Part shown: positions 2,968 to 61,584 of the stretch, one piece after another
Layout: the number at the start of each line of letters is the position of its first letter
Position numbering within the stretch: position 1 is the first letter of the stretch
Assembly (NCBI GenBank): GCA_964354795.1
Contig: CAYHBB010000037.1
Coordinates: forward strand, 110,197 to 174,196
Source of the DNA: an uncultured Planctomycetales bacterium
Lineage (GTDB): Bacteria > Omnitrophota > Gorgyraeia > Gygaellales > Profunditerraquicolaceae
Direction of reading: 5' to 3'
DNA length: 64,000 nucleotides
The notes under the pieces: generated by a model
The model's input: only the letters and a program-made list of their open reading frames with translations
The model's database searches: none
Told to the model about the DNA's origin: nothing
Position numbers and translations under genes: made by a program

Positions 2968-2971
2968 CTTT

Positions 2972-3062
2972 CTCCTTACCCCACAGGGGTAGGCCTTACT
3001 GTCCTATAAGTAAGGGCCTTATCCAGAGGGTTAGGCCTTACTATCCTATAAAGTAAGGGCCT
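2972..3062 (-). repeat. GC-clamp hairpin repeats (TACCCC-ACA-GGGGTAGGCCTT + GGCCTTACT...AGTAAGGGCC, second hairpin duplicated). Member of a hairpin family also present at 48096-48560.
   Basis: The near-identical 45-nt sequence TTACCCCACAGGGGTAGGCCTT(A/C)CT...GGGCCTTA occurs at 2972 and ~48165, with compensatory changes in the second stem. It lies between the SxtK-like stop and the next gene start. Confidence 0.7.
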
Positions 3063-3218
3063 AGAAAAGTGTATAGATAAACGGAGCGACTGCGCTGCCC
3101 TGCGAAAGGAATATCAAAATGCCCAGCAACAGCAAAACTATGATGATCGGCGCAAGCCACCATTTCTTCCTTACCCGCAGGAACTGCCAAAATTCATTGA
3201 TAATTGAAAGCTTTCCCA
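3063..3218 (-). CDS. SxtK-like small membrane protein (51 aa), unannotated in the ORF track
   Basis: Minus-strand ORF MGKLSIINEFWQFLRVRKKWWLAPIIIVLLLLGILIFLSQGSAVAPFIYTLF*. The ATG sits immediately after the SxtJ-like stop. The EFWQFL.RKKWW...APFIYTLF pattern matches, from my recollection of the family, the tiny protein that accompanies SxtI/SxtJ-type carbamoyltransferase modules. Confidence 0.6.
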
Positions 3219-3620
3219 TTAAAATTGCCTTTCGTAATTTAAAGGATTAAAATGTGTTTTTTCTTTGGGCTTCCAGTAAGAATCTTTATCTTTCTGTAGT
3301 CCCCTATCCAGCAAATCTATTCTAAATATTTTAATACCAATACCTATCGGTGTAAAGAACAAATAAAACAAGATACATAGGATTATGCGGGTATTGATCC
3401 AGCCTAAAACAATGGCAAATTTCATCCAGATTATATACACCCATTTTAATGAGCTGGGGAGGACCAAGGAAATAAACAAGAATGCAGCGGAGATCGCAGA
3501 AACCGGCATTGGGCTATGCCTATGCTTAAAAGAAATAACCAGCGCAATGACCGCAAAAGCAGCGCTCATGGTAATCCCAAACTTCCTTAGGTTTTTTTTG
3601 CTAAAATTTAACTTTTCCAT
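3219..3620 (-). CDS. SxtJ-family small membrane protein
   Basis: 133 aa with 3-4 transmembrane segments, immediately downstream of a carbamoyltransferase. This is the typical SxtJ-like arrangement. Confidence 0.6.
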   Translation of the reverse strand: MEKLNFSKKNLRKFGITMSAAFAVIALVISFKHRHSPMPVSAISAAFLFISLVLPSSLKWVYIIWMKFAIVLGWINTRIILCILFYLFFTPIGIGIKIFRIDLLDRGLQKDKDSYWKPKEKTHFNPLNYERQF

Positions 3621-3622
3621 AT

Positions 3623-5434
3623 TTAATCCAGCTCAAATTCCTTCTGCCAGGCAGAATCTTTCTCAAGAGGCTTCTGCTCAAGTTTATCCAGCATGATACT
3701 ACCCATCACCAGATAATCCATCTCTGTACGCATAAAGCACCTGAAAGCGTCTTCAGGCGTGCAAACCAGTGGCTCTCCCCTGACATTGAATGAAGTGTTA
3801 ATGATCACCGGACAGCCGGTCAAATCAAAAAAAGCTTTGATCATATCGTAATAAAGCGGGTTGTCTTCTCGCTTGACTGTCTGAACTCGGGCAGAATAAT
3901 CCACATGCGTGACTGCCGGGATCTGGGACCTGCGGAGTTTCAGCTTATCAAATCCCGCTGCCTTATCCTCAACCCGCAGGCATTTATCTCCGCTTACAGG
4001 AGAAACCAACAACATGTAAGGGCTTTCTTCCTCCATCTCAAACCACTCAGCCACCTCTTCTCTTAATACCGTCGGAGCAAATGGCCGGAATGACTCGCGG
4101 TACTTGATCTTTAAGTTCATGCGCGACTGCATCTCGGGACTGCGCGCATCTCCGATGATACTGCGGGCTCCCAGAGCCCGCGGACCAAACTCCATCCTAC
4201 CCTGAAACCAACCGATAACATTACCTTCATCGATCAACTGAGCGGTCTTTTCGGCTATCTCGGGATAGGACATTCTCTTATAAGAAATATTTTCTTTCTT
4301 TAAGAATGCTTCAATATATTCATCGCTATAATGGGGTCCGAGTAAAGAAGCATGCTGAAAATCCTTTTTGTCATCTGCCTGGCGCTTATTCCCCAGATAT
4401 CTATACCACCCTACCAATGCCGCACCCAAAGCACCTCCCGCATCTCCGCTTGCCGGCTGGATCCAAATCTCTTTAAACGGGCCCTCGCGTAGAATCTTTC
4501 CGTTTCCTACACAGTTAAGCGCCACCCCTCCGGCAAGGCAAAGCTTGTCCTGCTTAGTGACTTCATGCACATGATGCGCCATCTTCAACATTATTTCTTC
4601 GGTGACTTTCTGGATAGAAGCAGCGATATCCATATCTTTTTGGGAGATTTTAGTTTCAGGTCTTCTGGGTGCACCACCAAACAGCCTCTCAAATCTCCAG
4701 TTGGTCATACGCATACCGTAGCAATAGCCAAAATATTTCATATTCAGCTTAAATGACCCGTCTTTTTTGAGGTCAAGCAGCTTATCTTTAATCAAATCCA
4801 CATATTTAGACTCGCCATACGGAGCCAGGCCCATTAATTTGTATTCACCGGAATTAACCTTAAATCCAGTGTAGTAGGTAAAAGCGGAATACAACAAACC
4901 CAGAGAATGTGGGAAACGCAGATCCTTCAACATCTCAATTTCATTATCTTTGCCCACGCCAAAACTTGCAGTCTCCCACTCCCCTACTCCATCCAAAGTC
5001 AAGAATGCCGCTTCCTTAAAAGGCGATGGGTAAAATGCGCTAGCCGCGTGCGACTCGTGATGCCCGGCAAAAATAATCTTACCCTTATATCCCGTTAGCT
5101 CTTCCCTGATCACATCAGGGATCCAAATCTTCTGCTTAAGCCATAAAGGCATGGCCTGAATAAATTGTCTGATTCCCGTCGGAGCATAGGTGAGAGATGT
5201 TTCAAGTATACGTTCAAACTTAATAAACGGCTTCTCGTAGAAAACAATTACATCCAAATCGCTGATCTTGATCTTACCTTCCTGCAGGCACCAATTAATA
5301 GAGTGAATTGGAAAACGGAAATCGTGCTTCTTACGGCTAAAGCGCTCTTCCTGCGCCGCGGCGACAATCCTGCCGTCCTGCACAAAGCAAGCCGCGCTAT
5401 CGTGATAAAATGCTGAAATTCCAAGAATATTCAT
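3623..5434 (-). CDS. Carbamoyltransferase (NodU/CmcH/SxtI family)
   Basis: 603 aa. N-terminus MNILGISAFYHDSAACFVQDGRIVAAAQEERFSRKKHDFRFP is diagnostic of carbamoyltransferase N-domains, and there is a YrdC/HypF-like C-terminal half. Confidence 0.85.
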   Translation of the reverse strand: MNILGISAFYHDSAACFVQDGRIVAAAQEERFSRKKHDFRFPIHSINWCLQEGKIKISDLDVIVFYEKPFIKFERILETSLTYAPTGIRQFIQAMPLWLKQKIWIPDVIREELTGYKGKIIFAGHHESHAASAFYPSPFKEAAFLTLDGVGEWETASFGVGKDNEIEMLKDLRFPHSLGLLYSAFTYYTGFKVNSGEYKLMGLAPYGESKYVDLIKDKLLDLKKDGSFKLNMKYFGYCYGMRMTNWRFERLFGGAPRRPETKISQKDMDIAASIQKVTEEIMLKMAHHVHEVTKQDKLCLAGGVALNCVGNGKILREGPFKEIWIQPASGDAGGALGAALVGWYRYLGNKRQADDKKDFQHASLLGPHYSDEYIEAFLKKENISYKRMSYPEIAEKTAQLIDEGNVIGWFQGRMEFGPRALGARSIIGDARSPEMQSRMNLKIKYRESFRPFAPTVLREEVAEWFEMEEESPYMLLVSPVSGDKCLRVEDKAAGFDKLKLRRSQIPAVTHVDYSARVQTVKREDNPLYYDMIKAFFDLTGCPVIINTSFNVRGEPLVCTPEDAFRCFMRTEMDYLVMGSIMLDKLEQKPLEKDSAWQKEFELD

Positions 5435-5436
5435 GA

Positions 5437-7224
5437 TTACTGTTCTACCTTTGACTCTTTAGGCTGGGCAATAACCTCATACACATCAATGGGTCCGGTT
5501 TCCCGCACGCACCTGATATCCGAATCAGGACAGCTCTCAACAGGAAAAGTATTTACAAATTTTAGTCCGGGATTACTATTTATCCTCGCCACTTCTTCTT
5601 TATCCTCGGTCAATTCTGTCTTTAAGTAATCACCCTTGTGCACCAATACATACTTTACCCCTAACCACTTCAACCTCGCTGCAGCACCCGGATCAGACAA
5701 CTTAGCTACTGTATGAGCAACCTTATTAGCATAGGTTCCCGGAACGGTATAGTTGATCATTTTCTTTTCATGAGTCACCTGATAAAAACGATACATCTCA
5801 TTAGGAGCATCCTGATCCAGCGGATATTCCGCTATAACTGAATCTTTAGGCTGATCTTTAAGCCAATAATACACCTGAGGCACTCTGGAAAGATCTATAA
5901 CCTTAAAAGGAGGATAATTCCAGAATTCAAAAAGCAACAGAAAGGAACAAAGTAAAACCAATCCAGCTTTAGACTTTCTGGTCTTAAAGCTATACAACAA
6001 AAACTTAAGCCCAAAACCCGCCAATACGCTCACCGCGAACATCACCACAATCCCAAACCTGCAATAAGCCCTAAAGGCCGGCAAAATCTGATGGATAAAA
6101 AACGCCGGCATATAAATCTTGATATTCCCTATCTTCCACCACGGAGGTTGTGAGAAAAACCATGCAATCAATGCTAAAAAGACAAAGTATCCGACGTAAA
6201 ACCTGTCTCCTGAATTCTCTCCTCTTTTACGCCTACGAAATGCGATGAAAGCCAGAACAAGCGGCACCCACCCCAAGTAAAGCGTATGCTCGGTAAAACT
6301 TGCTCCGTAAAGCTCCGTACCCACAAATTGCTCAGTAAACCCTCCGAACAAAGGATGCACCACCGCGGGAAGTATATAACTAAGCGGTCGAGCTGACTGG
6401 TCAAATAAATCCTCAAAAGGCCGGTTGTAAACATTAAACGCCGAAGGAGCCATGCCTTTGGAAGCCAGCATTCCTTTAGCCACGGAAATAATCTGGGGAA
6501 GCATAACCAGACAAAATATTAAAAAAGCGAATATAGCCGCTTTTATAAGCTTCTGATTTTTATTAGAAACAAGTGTTTTATTTCTTAATTCCCGTAAAAA
6601 AAAGAATAGAGAAAATAAAACCAAAACCAAACCGGCATACAGGAAATTAAACCCTATGGACATAGAGATTATGCCTAACGAGAATACTAACATACGCTTT
6701 TTTGTGACCTCCGAGGACAGAAGCGCAAAGCCGTATAATGCAAAAGGGATAACCCAGATATATGTATCTCCCAAATGCTGCCAGGTGCGCACAAACATAT
6801 AAGGACAGAATGCAAAAGCAATCCCCGAAAAAAACGCGGATATTCTGTTTTTTGAAACAAAATAAACAAAAGAATAAGCGAAAAAAGCGGCGAGAAAAAA
6901 ATTAACCAATACCTGCAAGTTATAGGTTAGTATGGGGGTAGTCAGGATCGCCAACAGGTAATTTACGCCAAGCCAGATAAAACCAATCTTCTTATAAAGC
7001 TCAACGCCAAAGGGATAAGAAATAAAATCAGTCTTTATTAAGGCAAGATGATTGACAGAGGCAAACTTATTAAACCACCCGGCCCAAGGAATCGAGAATG
7101 ACTCGTCAGAAGAGAAAAAACCGGGCACGTGATCCGTAACCTTAAAAAATAGCGGATACGTCATCGCGATTTCAAGTAAAATAAAAATAATTAAAATGTA
7201 TACAGTCTTTTTCATCCCCACCAC
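5437..7224 (-). CDS. Large polytopic membrane protein (>=10 TM + C-terminal soluble domain); putative glycan polymerase / GT-C-type transferase
   Basis: 595 aa, hydrophobic over about 400 aa. The likely start is MKKTVYIL (M4, ~7215), overlapping the upstream stop as ATGA. Confidence 0.45.
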   Translation of the reverse strand: MVGMKKTVYILIIFILLEIAMTYPLFFKVTDHVPGFFSSDESFSIPWAGWFNKFASVNHLALIKTDFISYPFGVELYKKIGFIWLGVNYLLAILTTPILTYNLQVLVNFFLAAFFAYSFVYFVSKNRISAFFSGIAFAFCPYMFVRTWQHLGDTYIWVIPFALYGFALLSSEVTKKRMLVFSLGIISMSIGFNFLYAGLVLVLFSLFFFLRELRNKTLVSNKNQKLIKAAIFAFLIFCLVMLPQIISVAKGMLASKGMAPSAFNVYNRPFEDLFDQSARPLSYILPAVVHPLFGGFTEQFVGTELYGASFTEHTLYLGWVPLVLAFIAFRRRKRGENSGDRFYVGYFVFLALIAWFFSQPPWWKIGNIKIYMPAFFIHQILPAFRAYCRFGIVVMFAVSVLAGFGLKFLLYSFKTRKSKAGLVLLCSFLLLFEFWNYPPFKVIDLSRVPQVYYWLKDQPKDSVIAEYPLDQDAPNEMYRFYQVTHEKKMINYTVPGTYANKVAHTVAKLSDPGAAARLKWLGVKYVLVHKGDYLKTELTEDKEEVARINSNPGLKFVNTFPVESCPDSDIRCVRETGPIDVYEVIAQPKESKVEQ

Positions 7225-16377: not shown

Positions 16378-16473
16378 AATTACTCCTTCCGCAGAAAGCG
16401 GAACACCAGCCTATCCGCCCCAGAAGGGGCGTACTTGGCAATCCTTTATGCCAAGGTGCTTTAAGGCTGGGTG

Positions 16474-17799
16474 TTACAATCCTTCGCCAAGATGTTTAAT
16501 AGTAATCCCTTTAACGCTTTCCAACAATCTCCAACAATCAAGAAAAACCGTTTTTTTGCTTAGCTTCCTGAATTCTATTCTTTTAAACTCCTGCCATGGC
16601 ACAGCGATGATCGCTAAATCAGCTGCGCTTACACAATCAGTAGCATTCTTGGCGTAACGCACTGTATCTCCCAAGACGCCGCGCACATTTTCTAAAGCCT
16701 GAGGATCATAAACGCTTACCTTATAGCATTCGCTGACTAAAACCTGCGCGATACTCAATGCCTGAGAATCCTCAATAATCGGCGTATTGGGCTTATAGGA
16801 TAAACCTAAAACTGCGACTTTTATCTTATTTTTAGCGATGCGCGGTCTGCCTAAGACTTCATGCACACGCTCGACGATCCTGGTCGCCTGGTCGCGGTTG
16901 ACCTCATCCACCATTTCCGCAAGCTTGGCTTTTGTCTCAAGCCTCCTGGCGAAAGCGGCAAAAGCCACATTGTCGCGGGGAAAACACGGGCCTCCATAAC
17001 CTAATCCCGGACGGATATATTTTGCGCCAATTCGCGTATCCAGGCCAAGGGCTGCGGTGATCACATTGGCATCAGCGCCCTTCATCTTCTCGCAGATCGC
17101 GGCAATAGAATTAGCAAAGGTGATCTTTGTAGTTACATAGCAATTTAGCGATATCTTGGTGATTTCGGCGTTCAAAGGCGACATGCGGGCAAAACGGGGC
17201 TGATTATCGCAGGTCTTCTTGTAAATCTCTTCAAGCATCAATCCGTCTCTCGCGCTCATCTCGCCAATCAAAAGAAAATCCGGATTAAGAAAATCATGGA
17301 TCACGCTTCCTAAAGCGATAAACTCCGGATTGTAGACCACCCCGAAATCCTTGCCACAGGCTTTGCCGGAAGCCTTCTCCAAAATAAATTTAGCTACAGT
17401 CTCCACTGTCCCAGGCATGACCGTAGAAGTCACTACAACCAAGTGATACCCTTTTTTATTTTTTAAAGCCTCACCTATTTTATGTAAAGATTTCTCGAGA
17501 TAATCATTGGAGAAACTTCCATCAGCTAGACTGGGTGTGGCTACCACGATAAAAGTAATATCGCTATTCCTGATCGCCTCGTTATAATCCACGGTGGCAA
17601 ACAGATTCTTACGCACCACTTTAAGCAAGTCGCTCAAACCTGTCTCATCTATTGGAGATATACCTTTATTTATCTTATTTACTTTTTCGATATCCACATC
17701 CACACCAATTACTCTGTAGCCTTTTGAGGCAAAACACGCTGCCGTACATAAACCTAGCTTACCTAAACCTATGACTGAAAGTGAGTTGATTTCTTTCAT
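16474..17799 (-). CDS. Nucleotide-sugar dehydrogenase (UDP-glucose/GDP-mannose dehydrogenase family)
   Basis: N-terminal NAD fold IGLGKLGLCTAACFASKGYRVIGVD, central GGPCFPRD-like catalytic Cys region, and C-terminal UDP-binding domain. 441 aa. Confidence 0.8.
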   Translation of the reverse strand: MKEINSLSVIGLGKLGLCTAACFASKGYRVIGVDVDIEKVNKINKGISPIDETGLSDLLKVVRKNLFATVDYNEAIRNSDITFIVVATPSLADGSFSNDYLEKSLHKIGEALKNKKGYHLVVVTSTVMPGTVETVAKFILEKASGKACGKDFGVVYNPEFIALGSVIHDFLNPDFLLIGEMSARDGLMLEEIYKKTCDNQPRFARMSPLNAEITKISLNCYVTTKITFANSIAAICEKMKGADANVITAALGLDTRIGAKYIRPGLGYGGPCFPRDNVAFAAFARRLETKAKLAEMVDEVNRDQATRIVERVHEVLGRPRIAKNKIKVAVLGLSYKPNTPIIEDSQALSIAQVLVSECYKVSVYDPQALENVRGVLGDTVRYAKNATDCVSAADLAIIAVPWQEFKRIEFRKLSKKTVFLDCWRLLESVKGITIKHLGEGL

Positions 17800-31165: not shown

Positions 31166-32170
31166 CTATTTTTCCTCAGAAAGCCTTGCGGAAAGCAGGC
31201 CCTTAAGGAAAAAGATCCCGTATGCAATATGACTAAATATTATAGCAAAGAATACGGGAAATATCAACTGTAACTCTTTGGAAAGGCTCGAGATAAAGGC
31301 GAGCAAGAGATACAGTCCAAGGCAGGTAAAATAGGCTACTTTTATCCAAGGGCTAAGCATAGACAACACACCGCCTGAAACCAGCCCAAGCACAAAAACC
31401 GTAGGCAGAAAATAGGATAATCTTAGAGATGTCTCCGGGTACTTTTTCACAAAATAACCCCGGTGCAGGCCATAGCTTGAGATCTGCTTTAAATGCGGGA
31501 GATATATCTTTCGGCGGTGATGGTAAACCAAAACTGCAGGGTCATAAACGATTCTTTTCTTTAATTTATGGGTGATATCCAGGCAAAGCTTGGTATCCTC
31601 TCCCGGCCAGAACTTAGTATCAAAACCACCCAGCTCATCCATCACTGACTTACGCACCAGCAGATTACAGCTGGGATAATCATCCACGTCCCTCTTCTTC
31701 CCTGCTATATATCTGTAGCGGTACTGACCGCTTATCAACCATGATTCATATACTATCCCGCTGACTTTCTGACGCCATGAATCATCAAGAGGTGTAACCG
31801 CCGGCCCTCCCACTGCCGCGACCTCAGGATCGCTGAAATTAGCCAGTGCGGCTTTAAGCCAGCCCTTTACCGGATAGGCGTCATCGTCGAGAAATGCCAA
31901 GATCTGCCCCTTGGCGTGCTTTAAAGCGATATCCCGTTTGTCTGAAGGTTTAAGGGGGCCGGTGGGAATAATCTGAACAGAAGGGGACACTCTTGGTATA
32001 GCATCTTTTGCGCTTCCAAGGGTGTCCCCTTCTGTTGTAAGAGTCCCTATTTCAGCGTCTGGAAGTATGATTATCTCAAAATCCGGATAATCAAGCTCTA
32101 GACACCTAGCGACGCATTCTTCTAAATTCTTTTGCCAGGTTTTTACGGCGATGATAATCGATACGGTCAT
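31166..32170 (-). CDS. Glycosyltransferase family 2 with C-terminal multi-TM domain
   Basis: VSIIIAVKTW...FEIIILPD...ILAFLDDDAYP (GT-A), then hydrophobic helices. A 47-nt perfect hairpin (31983-32029) lies inside the coding sequence. Confidence 0.75.
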   Translation of the reverse strand: MTVSIIIAVKTWQKNLEECVARCLELDYPDFEIIILPDAEIGTLTTEGDTLGSAKDAIPRVSPSVQIIPTGPLKPSDKRDIALKHAKGQILAFLDDDAYPVKGWLKAALANFSDPEVAAVGGPAVTPLDDSWRQKVSGIVYESWLISGQYRYRYIAGKKRDVDDYPSCNLLVRKSVMDELGGFDTKFWPGEDTKLCLDITHKLKKRIVYDPAVLVYHHRRKIYLPHLKQISSYGLHRGYFVKKYPETSLRLSYFLPTVFVLGLVSGGVLSMLSPWIKVAYFTCLGLYLLLAFISSLSKELQLIFPVFFAIIFSHIAYGIFFLKGLLSARLSEEK

Positions 32171-35328: not shown

Positions 35329-35417
35329 GGGACAGTCCCCTTAGGTTAGGGGACACTCTTGGGATAGCATCATTTGCGCTTCCAAGGGTGTCCCCTATTA
35401 GGACGGGGGACAGTCCC
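35329..35417 (-). repeat. 47-nt perfect hairpin (GGGGACAC-TCTTGG...CCAAG-GGTGTCCCC) flanked by 11-12-bp palindromic direct repeats GGGACAGTCCC(C). Second copy at 31983-32029 inside a GT2 coding sequence.
   Basis: The two copies differ at 2 of 47 positions. The flanking GGGACAGTCCC repeats are at 35329-35340 and 35407-35417. Confidence 0.75.
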
Positions 35418-35425
35418 TTTATTTT

Positions 35426-36973
35426 TTATATATGCGTCCTCGCGGAAAGGCCGATCTTGGCCTGCTCCACGTCGACTTTGATCACTTTTACTTTAAGCTT
35501 ATCTCCCGGCTTAAGCCCTGCCACCATCTCCCGGTCGATCTCGCTTGAATACACCAGCCCCTCCACTTCATCGTCAAGCTTCACAAAAACTCCGAAGTCA
35601 GTAAGGCTGACCACTTCCGCATCCAGAATAGTATCCATCGGATACTTCTGGGCTATCTCGGCCCATGGATTTGGCTGCAGCTGCTTTAGCCCAAGCGATA
35701 TGCGGCGGTTTGAGCTATCCACGGAAACGATCACCACATCCACTTTCTGCCCCTTCTTCAAAACATCCTGCGGATGCGCGACTCTCTTGGTCCAGGACAT
35801 ATCAGATACGTGGATCATTCCTTCCAAGTTGCTGTCCAGCTCGACAAACGCGCCGTAATCAGTGAACCCTCTCACCTTTCCGGAGACCTGAGAGCCGACA
35901 GGGAACTTTCCGTCTGCCTCAAGCCAGGGATTAGACTCCAGCTGCTTTAAGCTTAAAGAGATCCTACGGGAATCCTTGTCCACATTCAGGACCTGGGCTT
36001 CCAAGGTATCTCCGATAGCGAACATTTCGCTTGGGTTATTCACTCTCTTAGTCCAGGAGATCTCGGAAACATGGATCAGGCCTTCGATGCCCTTATCCAG
36101 CTCGACAAATACTCCGTAAGGAAGAATGTTCACTACCTTACCTTTTAACTTTTGCCCCGCGGAAAACTTTTCCTCGATCTGCGACCACGGATCAGGCATG
36201 CGCTGCTTCAGGCCTAAAGAAACCTTGCCTGATTCACGGTCCATATTCAACACCATCACTTCAATCTTATCACTGATAGCCACTGCCTCAGAAGGATGTG
36301 ATATCTTTGACCAAGACATATCCGTGATATGCAAAAGCCCGTCCACGCCGCCCAGGTCCACAAACGCGCCGAAATCGGTGATGGCTTTTACGATCCCCGG
36401 GTAGATGTTGCCGATCTTGAGCTCACCCCAGATCTTTTCCTTAGCCTCTTCTTTTTCCTTTTGCATTGCCTCGCGGCGGCTGACGATTACGCTGCGACGC
36501 AAGTTGTTGACCTTGACGATCTTGAACTTGTAGGCCTTAAACATGATATCTTTTTCCTGCACGCCCTTAAACGCCGACAATGACAGCGGCAAGAACCCTT
36601 CGATACCCTGGCAGTCCACCAGATACCCGCCCTTGACCTTCTTGACCGGCCTTCCGTCGATAAGCCCACCGTCGGTAGACAACTTTACCACCTTGTCCCA
36701 ACCCTGCATGCGCATGGCTTTTTCACGCGATAGCGTAATATTACCCGCCTCATCCTCGACAGAATCGACATAAAACTCAAGCTCCTTGCCGACTTCCAGA
36801 TCTCCTTGAGAAAACTCAATTATCGGCACCAGGCCCTCGGACTTAAATCCGACATCCACCAACACATCCTTCTGGCGGATGGAAATGACCTTTCCGGTGA
36901 CCACTTCGCCGTCGTGTATTATTTTTATGCTTTGATTGTATAATTGTTCTAATTCAGCTCTCGAATCCGTCAT
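35426..36973 (-). CDS. rpsA: 30S ribosomal protein S1
   Basis: 515 aa with multiple tandem S1 domains (GxV...G.V..I....AFV...G..GL.H.S). RBS AGGAGAGG upstream. Confidence 0.9.
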   Translation of the reverse strand: MTDSRAELEQLYNQSIKIIHDGEVVTGKVISIRQKDVLVDVGFKSEGLVPIIEFSQGDLEVGKELEFYVDSVEDEAGNITLSREKAMRMQGWDKVVKLSTDGGLIDGRPVKKVKGGYLVDCQGIEGFLPLSLSAFKGVQEKDIMFKAYKFKIVKVNNLRRSVIVSRREAMQKEKEEAKEKIWGELKIGNIYPGIVKAITDFGAFVDLGGVDGLLHITDMSWSKISHPSEAVAISDKIEVMVLNMDRESGKVSLGLKQRMPDPWSQIEEKFSAGQKLKGKVVNILPYGVFVELDKGIEGLIHVSEISWTKRVNNPSEMFAIGDTLEAQVLNVDKDSRRISLSLKQLESNPWLEADGKFPVGSQVSGKVRGFTDYGAFVELDSNLEGMIHVSDMSWTKRVAHPQDVLKKGQKVDVVIVSVDSSNRRISLGLKQLQPNPWAEIAQKYPMDTILDAEVVSLTDFGVFVKLDDEVEGLVYSSEIDREMVAGLKPGDKLKVKVIKVDVEQAKIGLSARTHI

Positions 36974-43864: not shown

Positions 43865-43876
43865 AAGTGAGCGCAC

Positions 43877-44023
43877 ATTTTACGGAACAAAGTGACGTAA
43901 AATGTATGCGCGAACTTATTCCTGCAGCAACAAGTAAATTTATTGAGCGAAGCGAAAGAAATTTACGAAGTGCTTTGCTGCAGGAATTAACTCCTAAATA
44001 CATTTTACTGACATTATTACTTA
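43877..44023 (-). promoter_or_regulatory. Structured 147-nt ribD-ribE spacer. It has a long nested hairpin (TTCCTGCAGCAA...TTGCTGCAGGAA, 12-bp outer stem, 8-bp inner stem GTAAATTT/AAATTTAC) plus a second hairpin abutting the ribE start.
   Basis: Perfect inverted repeats are visible in the sequence. The second hairpin (GCGCACATTTTACG...CGTAAAATGT-GCGC) overlaps the candidate ribE start codons. Confidence 0.5.
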
Positions 44024-46874: not shown

Positions 46875-48089
46875 CTACTCAATATTCAAATCGTGTCCGA
46901 GTTTCTCTTTCTTCGCCTTTAAATACTTATAATTCAGCGGATTAGGCTCTACTTCAAGCCCGACGCGCTCCACTACCCGCAAACCATACCCCTCTAAACC
47001 GACGATCTTTCTGGGATTATTAGTTAATAATCGGATATATTTTATTCCTAGATCCACCAGTATCTGCGCGCCAATTCCGTAATCACGCAAATCCGCGGCG
47101 TGTCCCAGGGCAACATTCGCCTCAACTGTATCCATACCCTTATCCTGCAAGCCGTAAGCCTTGATCTTTTCTACCAGCCCGATTCCCCGGCCTTCCTGGC
47201 TCATATAAAGGACAACTCCTTTTTTCTCTTTATGAATCGCCTGCATAGCCAAATCTAACTGCCGGCCGCAGTCGCAACGCAAAGACCCGAAAACATCTCC
47301 GGTAAGACACTCTGAATGCACGCGCACTGTCACTGGCTCACTTGCCGCAAACTCTCCCATCACCAAAGCGGAATGCACTTTATTGTTGGTCAGATCCTTA
47401 TACAAGATCAAATTATACGTGCCGAATTCCGTGGGCAACACTGTCTGAGCAACTCTTTCGATCAGTTTCTCCGAGCCCCGGCGGTATTCAATAAGGTTAG
47501 CGATAGAGCAGATCTTTAAATTATGCTGTTTGGCAAAATCCAGAAGCTCGGGCAGACGGCTCATTGTCCCGTCATCATTCATGATCTCACAGATCACCCC
47601 TGCCGGAAACATTGCGCCAAGCTTCATCAGGTCAACCGAAGCTTCGGTGTGACCTGCCCTGACCAGCACCCCGCCGGCCCTGGCACGTAAGGGAAAAATA
47701 TGCCCGGGTCGGATCAGGTCTTCGGGCTTGCTTTGAGGATTGATCAAAACTTCAATAGTGCGGCTTCGGTCAGGAGCGGAAATCCCTGTAGTTACGCCTC
47801 TAGCCGCATCCACGGAAATCACCCAGGCAGTCTTAAGGGGGTCTTCCTTCTTGGAATGAGTCCGGTCTTTAAGCATGGGCTCAAGGTCCAGCTGCTGCAA
47901 CCTTGACTCTTCCATGGGCACACAGATAAGCCCGCGGCCGTACTTGGCCATGAAGTTGATGTGTTCAGGCCTGGCAGCGGAAGCAGCCATGACCAGGTCG
48001 CCCTCGTTTTCGCGGTCCTCATCATCGACGATGATCACCATGCGGCCTTTTTTTAGATCTTCTAAGATTTCTGGGATAGAGTTAAACAT
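46875..48089 (-). CDS. ribBA: Bifunctional 3,4-dihydroxy-2-butanone-4-phosphate synthase / GTP cyclohydrolase II
   Basis: DDEDRENEGDLVMAA... (DHBP synthase) and a C-terminal GTP cyclohydrolase II domain (CDCGRQLD zinc site). The start was moved to MFNSIPEIL (RBS AGGAAA); the ORF-track extension spans a leader hairpin. Confidence 0.9.
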   Translation of the reverse strand: MFNSIPEILEDLKKGRMVIIVDDEDRENEGDLVMAASAARPEHINFMAKYGRGLICVPMEESRLQQLDLEPMLKDRTHSKKEDPLKTAWVISVDAARGVTTGISAPDRSRTIEVLINPQSKPEDLIRPGHIFPLRARAGGVLVRAGHTEASVDLMKLGAMFPAGVICEIMNDDGTMSRLPELLDFAKQHNLKICSIANLIEYRRGSEKLIERVAQTVLPTEFGTYNLILYKDLTNNKVHSALVMGEFAASEPVTVRVHSECLTGDVFGSLRCDCGRQLDLAMQAIHKEKKGVVLYMSQEGRGIGLVEKIKAYGLQDKGMDTVEANVALGHAADLRDYGIGAQILVDLGIKYIRLLTNNPRKIVGLEGYGLRVVERVGLEVEPNPLNYKYLKAKKEKLGHDLNIE

Positions 48090-48095
48090 ATTAGT

Positions 48096-48215
48096 TTTCC
48101 TAACGGTACCCCCGTTGTTTCGCTTCGCGAAACAATTCACGGGGGTTATTTCAGCCATACACTTTACCCCACAGGGGTAGGCCTTCCTATCCGATTAAGG
48201 AAGGGCCTTATGTCG
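48096..48215 (-). repeat. Two GC-clamp hairpin modules (family TACCCC-stem-loop-GGGG + short palindromic hairpin) in the ribBA leader, between the riboswitch terminator and the start codon
   Basis: TACCCCCGTTGTTTCGC...GCGAAACAATTCACGGGGG and TTACCCCACAGGGGTAGGCCTTCCT...AGGAAGGGCC. The latter is nearly identical to the element at 2972. Confidence 0.65.
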
Positions 48216-48244
48216 CCCAGTGAGGGCTTCCATAAAGTGTGGCT

Positions 48245-48276
48245 TCAATAAAAAGCCCGAAGATGATCTCCGGGCA
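48245..48276 (-). terminator. Intrinsic terminator of the FMN riboswitch expression platform (GCCCGGAGAUCAUCUUCGGGC + UUUUUAUU)
   Basis: GC-rich 7-bp stem, 7-nt loop, and a U-tract on the minus strand. The stem contains AUCUUC, identical to the 5' strand of aptamer helix P1, which could compete for the P1 3' strand GAAGAU. Confidence 0.7.
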
Positions 48277-48285
48277 TGGGTGGAA

Positions 48286-48592
48286 TGAATAATCTTCTCT
48301 CATCTAGACTTTGCCGAGAAACGGCACCCCAATCTATCCTTTAAGATTGGGGGTACCCACTTCTGCGCTACCCCCAGCTTTATAGGTACAGCTGGGGTAT
48401 GCTTTCGGCATTACTATCGGCTCTGGCTTTACCAGATCTGCTCCAGCTATTGCTGAAGCTCGCGGGCTTTACCCCCAGCTTTATTGGAAAAACTGGGGTG
48501 CAGTCTGCATTACCCCCGGCGTTATTGGAAACGCCGGGGTAGGCTTTCTGCCTTACCGCCGGTCGGGAATCTCACCCTGCCCTGAAGATTAC
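48286..48592 (-). promoter_or_regulatory. FMN riboswitch (RFN element), unusually long (~300 nt) with about four inserted double-hairpin modules
   Basis: The minus strand reads AAUCUUCAGGGCAGGGUGAGAUUCCCGACCGGCGGUA... at the 5' end and ...GGCAAAGUCUAGAUGAGAGAAGAUU at the 3' end. These match the highly conserved 5' and 3' halves of the RFN consensus, and P1 is AAUCUUC/GAAGAUU. The element lies upstream of ribBA-ribH. Confidence 0.8.
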
Positions 48593-48603
48593 ATCAGAAT
48601 GTA

Positions 48604-48631
48604 AGTATAGCAGAAAATCTTAGCTTGTCAA
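48604..48631 (-). promoter_or_regulatory. Sigma70-type promoter for the riboswitch/rib operon (-35 TTGACA, 16-nt spacer, -10 TATACT)
   Basis: Minus strand reads TTGACAAGCTAAGATTTTCTGCTATACT, placed about 10 nt upstream of the aptamer 5' end. Confidence 0.55.
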
Positions 48632-48653
48632 TGCTTTTGGAAGGCACTATAAT
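48625..48653 (+). promoter_or_regulatory. Sigma70-type promoter for cinA/pncC (-35 TTGTCA, 17-nt spacer, -10 TATAAT). Its -35 overlaps the -35 of the divergent rib promoter, and the predicted TSS is at the ATG (leaderless).
   Basis: CTTGTCAATGCTTTTGGAAGGCACTATAATATAGCTATG. The ATG lies 6 nt after the -10 and there is no SD. Confidence 0.55.
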
Positions 48654-48659
48654 ATAGCT

Positions 48660-49142
48660 ATGCTGCAACATATTATAAATCAAGTACATAAATCCCTAAT
48701 AAAATCCTCCAAAACTATCGCAGTAGCAGAATCTTGCACCGGAGGACTCCTCTCTGCCATGCTTACCGAGCTTTCCGGAAGCTCAAAATACTTTACCTTA
48801 GGCGTAGTCACCTACAGCAATAAAGCCAAAGAGAAAATCCTGGGTATCCCCTCATCAGTTCTCGCCAATAAAGGAGCGGTGTCAGAAGATGTCGCTAAAT
48901 TAATGGCACAAAAAGTGCGTAGGCTAGCCAAAACTGACTTTGGCATAGGTATCACCGGCATCGCCGGGCCAAGCGGCGGGACAACCCGAAAGCCGATCGG
49001 AACTGTCTTCATCGCTATCGCAACTAAAAATAAGACAATCTGCAAGAAATTCAGCTTTAAGGGCAATCGCAGCAACATTAGAAATCAATCCGCCTTTGAA
49101 ACTCTGAAGTTATTGGAAATTTTACTAAAACCTAAAGGGTGA
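48660..49142 (+). CDS. CinA C-terminal domain protein / nicotinamide-nucleotide amidohydrolase PncC-like
   Basis: TIAVAESCTGGLLSAMLTELSGSSKYFTLGVVTYSNKAKEKILGI...GIGITGIAGPSGG is a typical CinA_C sequence. 160 aa. Confidence 0.85.
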   Translation: MLQHIINQVHKSLIKSSKTIAVAESCTGGLLSAMLTELSGSSKYFTLGVVTYSNKAKEKILGIPSSVLANKGAVSEDVAKLMAQKVRRLAKTDFGIGITGIAGPSGGTTRKPIGTVFIAIATKNKTICKKFSFKGNRSNIRNQSAFETLKLLEILLKPKG

Positions 49143-49160
49143 TTTGGTATAGTTTCAAGT

Positions 49161-49202
49161 CTTGCTTACGAAGTTTGGCTTCCTAACCTTCTGTGATAGA
49201 AT
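49161..49202 (+). promoter_or_regulatory. Promoter with extended -10 (TGATAGAAT) upstream of the AT-rich hypothetical gene. Strong SD GGAGG before the ATG.
   Basis: CTTGCTTACGAAGTTTGGCTTCCTAACCTTCTGTGATAGAAT ... AAATGGAGGTTAAAAATG. Confidence 0.45.
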
Positions 49203-49275
49203 ATATTACAGAGAGTTTTGAAATATAGTGCTTTTGAAATAGAAGTATATAGCTGAGTGTAAATGGAGGTTAAAA

Positions 49276-49629
49276 ATGCACAGGTTTACAAAAGATTTAA
49301 ATTTATCTCATTTAATAGGCGGAGAGCTTACTTCGGTTTCCATAGACCAAAACAATCTTTACTTTGCTTTTGACCCAGATAACCACATAAGCATTTCTGG
49401 AGAATGGAAAGTGATAGATGATAAGAATATTTTGGTTGACGGTGGTATTTTAGGAGAAGACAAAGACGCATATAAAGTCCATAAACTTTTAGGCAAAAAA
49501 ATAAAAGATTATAAAATAAATTCCCCTAAATCACTCTCCATTATCTTTAATAATAATTGGACATTGGAAATAATAGATAACTCTGACCACTACGAGAGTT
49601 GCTCTATATCTCCAAATATATACATTTAG
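49276..49629 (+). CDS. Hypothetical protein (117 aa), AT-rich, no recognisable domain
   Basis: Clean ORF with a strong RBS and its own promoter. Codon usage is markedly more AT-rich than the neighbours. Confidence 0.5.
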   Translation: MHRFTKDLNLSHLIGGELTSVSIDQNNLYFAFDPDNHISISGEWKVIDDKNILVDGGILGEDKDAYKVHKLLGKKIKDYKINSPKSLSIIFNNNWTLEIIDNSDHYESCSISPNIYI

Positions 49630-49698
49630 GGGACCGCAAACTTCTTTTAGCGGCTGGCTTGGCTTAATTCTGAATAGGCTAATAGTAGGTTTAGTGGG

Positions 49699-53505: not shown

Positions 53506-53609
53506 AATTATTAGTGGAGCTCCCCGGACTAAAGTCCGAGGCTCCCTCCTGAACAGAAATCAATCTACATTCATCCCTCGGGTTAAAACCCGGGGATTTC
53601 TGTGAAGGA

Positions 53610-58674: not shown

Positions 58675-58890
58675 CAGCCTAAGCGAACAGAAACTTTCTA
58701 ATTAACTATGCCTGATGCACAGACGAATTCAAGCCTATTCTAACCTAAAAAGAAAGCGCTTTCAAAGACCGGTGGAGCCCCTAGAATTAATGGTCGAGGC
58801 TCCCCCCTGAAGCACACCTTGCCTTAAAGGATAGGCAAGTGTGTTGCTTTCTGCAACAAACCACATTCCGCAAAGAACATAGCAGGGGAA

Positions 58891-59625: not shown

Positions 59626-59701
59626 CCATACCTCCACTATTTAGTAAACTCTTCTTCCTTCACAGCAAGTGAACACCGGCCTCACCTATAAGGCCGGGTG
59701 T

Positions 59702-60184
59702 TCAATATACTCTTCTTCCTTCAACCTTCTCCCAATCATTCAAAAGCTTCATACACTCGGCTCTGTCAAAGTGAGCGAATATTTTAACACTGCTTTTGCC
59801 TTTTGTCTTCAAATTTTTAGCTGAAATACTTAGCTCGCAAAATCCCAGCTTCTTGACGTCGGCGATGTTCGTCCCGTAGATCACCGCATCCAGTCGCGCC
59901 CAGTGAATAGCGCTGAAGCACATCGGACACGGCTCGGTAGTGGAATATATGACGCATCCTGAAAGGTCAAAATGCCTCACTTTTCTCGAGGCAATACGGA
60001 TGGCGTTTACTTCCGCATGGCAGGTGGCGTCTTCTTCCAGCACCGTATTATGCGCTACTGCCAGGACTAAATTATTCCTGACAATGCAGGCGCCGAACGG
60101 GCCGCCATTAAGGGTTCTTAAGTTTTTGCGCGCCTCCTTTATAGCCAGGCGCATATAATTTAGCTGCGGCCTCATCCGGATCAC
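59702..60184 (-). CDS. Nucleoside/tRNA-specific deaminase (CDA fold)
   Basis: Zinc motifs CHAEVNAI ... PCPMC. 160 aa. Confidence 0.75.
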   Translation of the reverse strand: MIRMRPQLNYMRLAIKEARKNLRTLNGGPFGACIVRNNLVLAVAHNTVLEEDATCHAEVNAIRIASRKVRHFDLSGCVIYSTTEPCPMCFSAIHWARLDAVIYGTNIADVKKLGFCELSISAKNLKTKGKSSVKIFAHFDRAECMKLLNDWEKVEGRRVY

Positions 60185-61524: not shown

Positions 61525-61584
61525 AGAAAGCTCCTTGCGCGGAAAGCGCAACACCAACCTTTCCTATTAGGTTGGGTGTATCTC

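Follow-up and report, generated by a model that had tools for sequence, protein, structure and literature searches.

Very small hairpin repeats, present or absent at orthologous sites, in the spacers and FMN riboswitch loops of an Omnitrophota lineage

Several families of small bacterial repeats are known that sit close to gene boundaries or form hairpins. Repetitive extragenic palindromic (REP) sequences act secondarily as stabilisers of messenger RNA (mRNA), and mycobacterial interspersed repetitive units (MIRUs) are found in the spacers between operon genes, in contact with the stop and start signals of those genes. The small dispersed repeats (SDR) of Nostoc are hairpin-forming, shorter than 50 nt and nested, and their mobility was inferred from orthologous loci; as generally described, they differ from the repeats analysed here in sequence, phylum and unit structure. 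Here we analyse a double-hairpin unit, named X, and its relatives in a 64,000-nt stretch (the window) of an uncultured bacterium of the Omnitrophota (contig CAYHBB010000037.1, positions 110,197 to 174,196), using related contigs and loci, labelled with L-numbers (L082, L086 and so on), for comparison. The units are dispersed, present or absent at orthologous sites, nested, grown in tandem, inverted and, in old copies, decayed. We put the probability at roughly 0.7 that they form a lineage-specific repeat family of very small hairpins, non-coding and insertion-polymorphic, that behaves like REP sequences or miniature inverted-repeat transposable elements (MITEs).

The units share with the REP sequences, bacterial interspersed mosaic elements (BIMEs) and REP doublets forming hairpins (REPINs) of Proteobacteria the form of GC-rich, bulged imperfect palindromes of about 35-45 nt that are extragenic, often within operons, single or clustered, in both orientations and strain-variable, and X carries GTAG at the foot of its hairpin (PMC3116915). 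REPINs are miniature mobile DNA that depends on RAYT transposases, and the Nostoc repeats are cited in the same paper (PMC3116915). Bacterial MITEs with TA duplication (for example Correia and RUP; reviewed in PMC3184786) are, like our units, non-autonomous, insertion-polymorphic, flanked by a short AT duplication, able to form stable RNA stem-loops and often located near gene starts; the same review describes MIRUs as 40-100-bp repeats, often in tandem. Unlike our units, MIRUs are not double hairpins, have no conserved loop or bulge and are not reported in loops of RNA structures. No report of repeats in Omnitrophota or of repeat units inside riboswitch aptamers was found in the searchable literature, which was covered incompletely, and the present units extend small palindromic repeats to an uncultured phylum-level lineage.

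Unit X and the wider hairpin family

Two hairpin clusters, both surrounded by genes of the minus strand, were compared. The element at 2972-3062 fills the entire spacer between the TAG stop codon of a gene for a 52-aa DUF5989 protein and the ribosome-binding site of the next gene, and the second cluster lies within the 567-nt leader of ribBA. The pattern ACCCC-N3-30-GGGGT has seven matches in the window against 0.84 expected, a number reached by no shuffle, and all seven are confined to these two intergenic stretches. The hairpins described in a sequence-only reading of the same DNA were all found in place, and its count of at least eight copies rises to at least 12 units of a wider family.

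Unit A1 (Table 1) displays the complete order of X: TTA, a mini hairpin CCCC-ACA-GGGG (2979-2989), TA, a main hairpin (2992-3018, GGCC-TTACT-loop GTCCTATA-AGTAA-G-GGCC) and a second TTA. On the mRNA (minus) strand its end directly meets the ribosome-binding site (GGGG-TAAGGAG-N4-ATG). In A2 the main hairpin (3034-3061) is intact and the mini hairpin has decayed (CCAGAGGG); on the mRNA strand this unit begins at the stop codon (TAG) of the gene for the DUF5989 protein. Unit B of the ribBA leader is nearly identical to A1, as had been noticed before, with 91% identity over 32 ungapped nt and a compensatory difference in the second stem (TTACT/AGTAA in A1, TTCCT/AGGAA in B). Both score with E values of about 1e-19 against R1, a covariance model built from 28 X copies. 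Read in the sense of the window's plus strand, the consensus of these copies is TTA, CCCC-ACA-GGGG, TA, GGCC-TTCCT-loop aTCCgATtA-AGGAA-G-GGCC and TTA(C/T). In the alignment 96% of the cells are paired, compensatory changes affect three distal pairs in the main hairpin (TTCCT, TTACT, TTATC, TTCTC), and the covariation score was reached by no shuffle, the basal parts of the hairpins having been fixed by the search pattern. The motif GTAG is invariant in the 28 copies and missing from the CACC-type and CCCC-type subfamilies. Compared with palindrome-associated transposable elements (PATEs), nearly all X copies are preceded by TTAC and repeat TTA(C/T) at the right end, and the two hairpins of a unit are unlike each other.

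Copies of X were identified far beyond the window. A scan of one genome per species with a 21-mer of X (TACCCCNNNGGGGTAGGCCTT) yielded five exact copies on four contigs of one Candidatus Omnitrophota metagenome-assembled genome (MAG) and one copy in a second MAG, labelled Planctomycetales. The window is none of the X-bearing MAG contigs, and the match is limited to the element itself. A metagenome scan added about 25 further distinct true copies, which places X at more than 30 loci outside the window (two MAGs and many metagenome contigs) and answers the earlier suggestion to look for further copies in relatives. R1 detected seven copies that the exact pattern had missed, six on fetched loci (25 to 60 bits) and one on L084 (77.3 bits). 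Copies more than 90% identical to each other occupy unrelated contexts in several genomes. They stand singly or in direct tandem (three in L031, two each in the window and L015), and no inverted pairs of the REPIN type were seen among the X copies examined.

Within the wider family, X (CCCC-ACA-GGGG / GGCC-TTCCT) forms a single subfamily that is young and highly uniform. Units of the wider family, about 42-48 nt long, consist of a GC-rich mini hairpin, TA and a main hairpin with a 4-bp GC-rich base, a single bulged G, a variable stem of 4-6 bp and the conserved loop wTCCnATwA. Weak R1 matches with the layout and loop of X but different stems were obtained at 16414, 59657, 61534 and 58811 and in the riboswitch hairpins. 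A sequence-blind descriptor (a 4-bp stem followed by one of 4-6 bp, with a single bulged G in the 3' arm and 7-12 nt in the loop) retrieved 14 distinct hairpins from the window, against 1 to 6 raw matches in shuffles. The loop motif is present in nine of the 14, and all nine are intergenic; like REP sequences, the units are short, repeated, extragenic imperfect palindromes. Across 236 kb of related DNA the motif occurs in 53 of 73 descriptor matches, and nearly all of these 53 follow a mini hairpin (N3-4-AGAAA-N3-4; in X, CCCC-ACA-GGGG) and TA. Compensatory stem changes also distinguish orthologous or paralogous copies of non-X units. The three places to which the sequence-only reading had assigned copies (the 2972-3062 spacer, the ribBA leader and the riboswitch region) do hold units, but they are not the only ones, and the last four rows of Table 1 list the others. 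In the element at 16383, the outer unit (CCGC-AGAAA-GCGG followed by ACACCAGCC...GGCTGGGTGT) holds the inner unit in its loop.

Many other matches to the 21-mer pattern, in Actinomycetota and elsewhere, were rejected, as they have the 21-mer but are otherwise unrelated to X. On 15 contigs (L005, L007, L010, L011, L013, L014, L018, L022, L028, L038, L049, L058, L065, L072 and L077) the 21-mer occurs by coincidence within a shared conserved stretch of about 150 nt (GGTTCGAATCGCTATCGCGTGATCGACCTTGGGAGGGGCAAAACGCCC...TACCCCATGGGGGTAGGCCTTCCTACAGCC); the six of these that come from the genome scan are labelled Actinomycetota, Ilumatobacteraceae or Acidimicrobium, and L011 is without an Rfam match. 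A separate repeat (TACCCCGGCGGGGTAGGCCTTGGGTAC...CATACCCCATCCCTACAC), unrelated to the X family, recurs on many contigs of one metagenome, Ga0307513 (L024, L026, L032, L033, L045, L064 and L071).

Presence and absence at orthologous sites

The DUF5989 protein is 100% identical in the window, L086, L087, L088 and L089, which allowed the 2972-3062 site to be compared among them. L086 and L089 have no unit there (TTT-TAA-GGAG-CTGAA-ATG), L087 and L088 have one, its mini hairpin decayed as in A2, and the window has two, the decayed unit and an intact second one. Where the flanks are about 86% identical, the main hairpin persists and the mini hairpin decays. The window and L082 are 97-99% identical in nucleotide sequence, and the breaks in their collinearity are intergenic hairpin elements, bar one difference in gene content; four intergenic elements differ between the two. 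A 96-nt two-hairpin element with TAA flanks (53514-53608), located between the ftsK stop codon and the next gene, is found in the window only and is absent in L082 and L084. The leader (5' untranslated region) of the L21 gene in L082 contains an 88-nt nested two-unit element that is absent at the orthologous window site, and a 90% identical copy with a compensatory change in the outer stem is the element at 16383-16475. The ribBA leader itself also differs between them. Two minor observations belong to these loci: the 53514-53608 element represents another insertion-polymorphic family, with a related copy near 58772-58811, and the sole gene-content difference in about 19 kb (49134-49684 versus 8781-9234 in L082) consists of a barstar-family gene in L082 and a different 117-aa open reading frame (ORF) in the window.

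Filled and empty sites could be resolved at eight junctions, and at seven of them TA or TAA stands on both sides of the unit and once in the empty site. The targets are the TAA of TAAGGAG, a loop TAA of another unit, the inner loop of a composite repeat (E, below) and the GG-TAA-AG of riboswitch loops L3 and L6. X itself was found nested in the loop of another X with TAA flanks (L040, L055), and an X variant inside CACC-type hairpins (L003, L004, L006, L019). A rule of subfamily-fixed flanks (TTA for X, TAA for the others), which would have favoured guide-directed targeting, was rejected in its strict form, the nested X copies being TAA-flanked. The TA(A) on both sides, the insertion polymorphism and the nesting are what classical MITEs would produce if mobilised by a TA- or TWA-duplicating DDE transposase (IS630/Tc1 or IS5/PIF type). 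We nevertheless regard this origin as very unlikely, as the units measure 27-48 nt, far under known MITE sizes and 3-10 times smaller than Correia or RUP elements, no transposase was seen in the related DNA examined, and terminal inverted repeats are lacking both in X, whose two ends (CCCCACAGG.../...GGAAGGGCC) share no inverted repeat beyond the hairpin arms, and in the 145-nt E (CGGTACCCCC.../...GTGGCTTCAA). Likewise, no insertion sequence (IS) was found in that DNA, nor a parent IS with matching terminal inverted repeats.

The composite repeat E lies between the riboswitch terminator and the ribBA ribosome-binding site. It begins with a long GC-clamped hairpin, P0 (48107-48148), which had been read as a copy of the hairpin family and is in fact the first arm of E. 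P0 is followed by a linker, TTATTTCA (also given as TTAATTCG), an outer stem in which about 48153-48163 pairs with 48232-48242, a small hairpin Y (48214-48229) and the tail CTCAYT. E recurs at many loci, often with X nested in its inner stem. The composite of E and X at 48104-48248 is missing from six orthologous ribBA leaders (L082, L083, L084, L090, L091 and L092). In the ribD-ribE spacer, E is without X in the window and L082 and carries X in L051, the empty site reading CATTT-TA-CGTC and the filled one CATTT-TA-[CCCC...GGGCCT]-TA-CGTC; E is absent from this spacer in L083 and L084. An E-like element without X stands in the ribBA-ribH spacer of L082 and is absent there in the window. The same spacer holds an intergenic insertion of a further kind in L084 (11213-11345) and L090 (2713-2845): two arms, one rich in GT and the other in AC, form an inverted repeat of about 100 nt, which is absent in the window, L083, L091 and L092.

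Units in the loops of the ribBA riboswitch

The identity of ribBA was confirmed by Pfam, and its leader holds an FMN (flavin mononucleotide) riboswitch: helices P1 to P6 are recovered by folding, the position is upstream of a riboflavin gene, and a terminator platform is present. In P1, AATCTTC (48590-48584) pairs with GAAGATT (48297-48291); P2 to P6 bear the inserts, a terminator hairpin with a U-tract follows P1, and a promoter-like TTGACA / TATACT pair lies at 48631-48604. A scan of the window at the Rfam gathering threshold called no RNA family, the FMN riboswitch included. The relaxed scan gave the score listed in Table 1, against a gathering score of 66.2 for RF00050, and its alignment contains an 81-nt insert in L3 and a misaligned 3' part; the score falls under the cut-off because of the inserted units. 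Four units thus push a genuine FMN riboswitch below the gathering score, so in genomes rich in repeats such loci will escape RNA annotation that relies on homology. In the minimum-energy fold (RNAfold) of the 316-nt aptamer, P1 to P6 are kept and the inserts form separate, self-contained hairpins.

Loops L3 and L6 hold two units each (C2 to C5, Table 1). C2 consists of the mini hairpin GCCG-AGAAA-CGGC (48313-48325) and the main hairpin CCCC-AATCT-ATCCTTTA-AGATT-G-GGGG (48327-48353). In L083, L084 and L090 the L6 unit is inverted with respect to C2, as its reverse complement, and a compensatory change in the stem separates the two. C3 (minus-strand loop GTACCTATAA) has no counterpart in L082, L083, L084 or L090. 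The site of C4 holds only a mini-hairpin remnant in L082 and nothing in L084, L090, L091 and L092, and C5 (loop TTCCAATA, bulged G on the minus strand) is present in L082 and L083 and absent in L084, L090, L091 and L092. The sequence-only reading had placed four family copies here. Related units they are, but their register was wrong: judging by the loop motif and the position of the bulge, three of them are homologous to X on the opposite strand, the mini hairpin of X having been equated with the main hairpin of the units. As a unit is quasi-symmetric (TWA-hairpin-TA-hairpin-TWA), an apparent plus-strand resemblance resulted.

Six orthologous leaders, fetched by way of RibBA homologues, make seven riboswitches together with the window. 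No unit is found in L3 or L6 of L092 (RibBA identity 80%, RF00050 score 116 bits) and L091 (80%, 106 bits). L090 (84%, 92 bits) and L084 (86%, 78 bits) each have one in L6, L083 (92%, 80 bits) has two in L3 and one in L6, L082 (99%, 97 bits) has one and a mini-hairpin remnant in L3 and none in L6, and the window has two in each (53 bits). Empty loops read GG-TAA-AG or GGTTAAAG, and filled ones GG-TAA-[unit]-TAA-[unit]-TAA-AG. Since the counts range from 0 to 4 among seven orthologues, with none in the more distant ones, the riboswitch units are, on this sequence comparison, recent, variable and tolerated passengers of the peripheral loops and not parts of the aptamer. The co-option into a riboswitch that had been suggested is not borne out by this series.

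That the hairpins might instead be integral, lineage-specific expansions of the FMN aptamer, their likeness to the 2972 element being a generic GC-clamp, we regard as extremely improbable. The units do sit in loops where helices can grow outwards, and the Rfam model is known to be variable in L3. Against this, the two most distant of the orthologues have no units, one of the window's units is inverted, and the same unit architecture and loop motif recur at many unrelated loci. On the reading as mobile repeats, the orthologue series amounts to a riboswitch progressively colonised at two loops, and it provides a natural insertion-tolerance map of FMN aptamer positions that accept 40 to 100 extra nt. 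The nearest precedent is a Rickettsia palindromic element (RPE) that lies in the transfer-messenger RNA (tmRNA) gene (PMC1458961). RPEs, too, are palindromic repeats that enter functional sequences where the structure tolerates them, but they are 100-150 nt long and best known as in-frame protein insertions, whereas the hosts here are hairpin loops, a riboswitch and junctions of stop codon and ribosome-binding site.

Table 1. Positions of the hairpin units, the composite repeat E and the host riboswitch in the window
Feature	Position	Strand	Remarks
X unit A1	2975-3022	+	R1 74.5 bits; orthologous site empty in L086, L089
X unit A2, older tandem copy	3023-3063	+	R1 match 3030-3065, 32.3 bits; same decayed unit in L087, L088
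X unit B, nested in inner stem of composite repeat E	48163-48211	+	R1 76.5 bits
Composite repeat E with nested X	48104-48248	+	TAA flanks at 48101-48103 and 48249-48251
E without X, ribD-ribE spacer	43866-44020	-	orthologous empty site for X insertion of L051
Host FMN riboswitch of ribBA	48250-48592	-	Rfam RF00050 53 bits; intrinsic terminator 48275-48250
Riboswitch unit C2, loop L6	48313-48353	+	R1 20.9 bits; only riboswitch unit in X orientation
Riboswitch unit C3, loop L6	48370-48413	-	main hairpin 48370-48398, mini hairpin 48400-48410
Riboswitch unit C4, loop L3	48471-48510	-	main hairpin 48471-48499, mini hairpin 48500-48508
Riboswitch unit C5, loop L3	48512-48555	-	main hairpin 48512-48540, mini hairpin GGC-AGAAA-GCC 48542-48552, TAA flank
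Two-unit nested element	16383-16475	+	R1 19.7 bits; abuts ribosome-binding site of next gene
Wider-family unit	58811-58860	-	GCAGAAAGC + ACAC-TTGCC-TATCCTTTAA-GGCAA-G-GTGT; R1 match and descriptor search
Wider-family unit	59657-59704	+	TCAC-AGCAA-GTGA + CACC-GGCCT-CACCTATA-AGGCC-G-GGTG; R1 17.8 bits, descriptor search
Wider-family unit	61534-61581	+	GCGC-GGAAA-GCGC + CACC-AACCT-TTCCTATT-AGGTT-G-GGTG; R1 match and descriptor search

Possible routes of movement and possible function

If the units are mobile repeats, their movement would take place at the DNA level and depend on an enzyme encoded elsewhere. This enzyme would probably recognise the hairpin in its folded form, with bulge and loop, and would prefer TA(A) in exposed or loop positions. 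Units would survive only where extra structure is harmless, as at the stop/ribosome-binding-site junctions of packed operons, in hairpin loops and in the outer loops of a riboswitch. An inserted unit is predicted to fold independently in the transcript, and host RNA structure and translation signals would therefore stay intact. At intercistronic sites the units may, by analogy with REP sequences, secondarily stabilise the mRNA. In its manner of working only, such recognition of a folded hairpin with extrahelical bases, and not of the stem sequence, would resemble that of integron attC sites; R and L boxes, cassette ORFs and an integrase are absent here, and the loop is conserved here and not in attC.

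One candidate for the enzyme is a Y1 HUH transposase, the units then being derivatives of IS200/IS605-RAYT elements (REP- or PATE-like) that move as single-stranded DNA through recognition of a bulged hairpin and insert beside a short target such as TTAC. We think this quite unlikely, although several traits agree with it. X has GTAG at the foot of a bulged imperfect palindrome, as classical REPs do, and TTAC before almost every copy with TTAC or TTAT at the end; insertion into hairpin loops would fit a single-stranded target; the RAYT-dependent REPINs introduced above set a precedent; and the footprint-free empty site of L086 and L089 (TTT-TAA-GGAG) fits precise excision, though equally a site that was never occupied. 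However, the GTAG is lacking in the other subfamilies, the arrays are direct tandems (L031) and not inverted doublets, X nested in X is flanked by TAA and not TTAC, and TA(A) on both sides, single in empty sites, looks like a duplication and not like a one-sided target. A crude regular-expression search for HUH...Y ORFs (Y1/RAYT-like) in 240 kb of related DNA found none. Pfam analysis of ten ORFs flanking X in the Omnitrophota MAG returned housekeeping enzymes only, and the precomputed Pfam annotation of L082 to L087 contains no transposase. A rolling-circle model, in which a Rep-type nick in the conserved loop would explain the tandems, was rejected for the nested copies because the nested insert contains an intact hairpin and not loop-to-loop segments.

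Collectively, the REP/MITE-like mobile family that had been proposed holds as far as dispersal and clean presence or absence are concerned, but not as membership of the REP/RAYT or MITE classes: no inverted doublets, terminal inverted repeats or associated transposase were found. The units further differ from REPs and REPINs in the pairing of a mini with a main hairpin, a conserved loop with covarying stems, TA(A) on both sides and systematic nesting in hairpin loops. No established mechanism of mobilisation matches a conserved loop and bulge taken together with covarying stems, TA(A) flanks and the targeting of loops. The units could represent a new class of ultra-small, structure-defined mobile elements, whose enzyme would read the folded hairpin (GC base, bulged G, conserved loop) and prefer TA(A) in single-stranded hairpin loops; such a preference would account for the self-nesting and for the colonisation of L3 and L6, but we consider this proposal unlikely as it stands. 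In the transcript, the conserved loop might also serve to bind a protein and so place the genes beside insertions under common post-transcriptional control.

Several observations weigh against the reading as mobile repeats. The copy number per genome is apparently modest, with five exact matches in the single MAG scanned; the failure of the search for an enzyme, crude as that test was, counts here as well, as do the housekeeping character of the genes adjacent to the elements and the lack of terminal inverted repeats apart from the units' own hairpin arms. The nested junction of the inner unit in the 16383-type element shows no TA duplication. Some presence/absence differences could, from the pattern of identities, reflect allelic recombination between strains and not transposition. 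L086 is 98.3% identical to the window downstream of the element (1-2967) and 90-92% upstream (3065-5449), and as this jump falls exactly at 2968-3064, a recombination breakpoint coincides with the repeat site. Finally, selection on the hairpin itself is indicated by its conserved loop and bulge, by the covariation of its stems and by the persistence of the main hairpin, so the units may be more than inert passengers.

The last point leads to an alternative in which the units are primarily functional RNA modules, either protein-binding (candidate CsrA-type) or mRNA-stabilising or processing hairpins, whose spread rewires downstream cistrons and for which mobility is a means of delivery only. 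We hold this to be possible, though rather unlikely. At many unrelated genes a unit stands directly 5' of AAGGAG, the unit at 61534 among those that abut the ribosome-binding site on the mRNA strand. The mRNA-sense loops read UAUAGGAC, UAAUCGGAU, UAAAGGAU and UAUAGGUG, and a CsrA-type candidate is suggested by the mRNA-sense loop UAUAGGAN with a second GGA in the adjacent ribosome-binding site. X lies antisense to its flanking genes, with the GGA-type loop in the mRNA, at 21 loci, against 6 in sense and 7 mixed, a bias that is confounded with GC skew. From subfamily to subfamily the stems covary, yet loop and bulge are conserved, and the main hairpin outlasts the mini hairpin. A very weak further sign is that X(+) stem mismatches comprise four A.C and two G.T, with one mRNA-sense G.U in L088; the count is uninformative. 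On the other side, both orientations occur within transcripts (4 of about 12 units in the window are opposite; three of the four riboswitch units and 58811-58860 are inverted), and the closest relatives lack units at the same genes. The position next to the ribosome-binding site is equally expected from insertion into the TAA of TAAGGAG in a compact genome, and no binding protein was identified, a CsrA gene not having been searched for. Insertion-polymorphic mobile repeats remain our preferred reading of these positions.

Rfam 15 at gathering threshold matched no family to the units in the window or in 15 related loci, and the relaxed scan (E<=10) of 47950-48750 returned the FMN match and otherwise chance-level matches only. 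A gene-specific leader RNA was rejected for the upstream arrays, as these precede unrelated genes (for an epimerase, L21, an omega-like protein and a 105-aa protein).

Two further repeats of the window are of other kinds. A different repeat family is represented by two 96%-identical long intergenic hairpins (AGGGGACACTCTTGG...CCAAGGGTGTCCCCT) at 31976-32036 and 35347-35397, with RNA minimum free energies of -44 and -35 kcal/mol for stretches of about 90 nt around each. The repeats with a 261-nt period at 35570-36381, inside a 515-aa gene, are the ordinary S1 domains of ribosomal protein S1.

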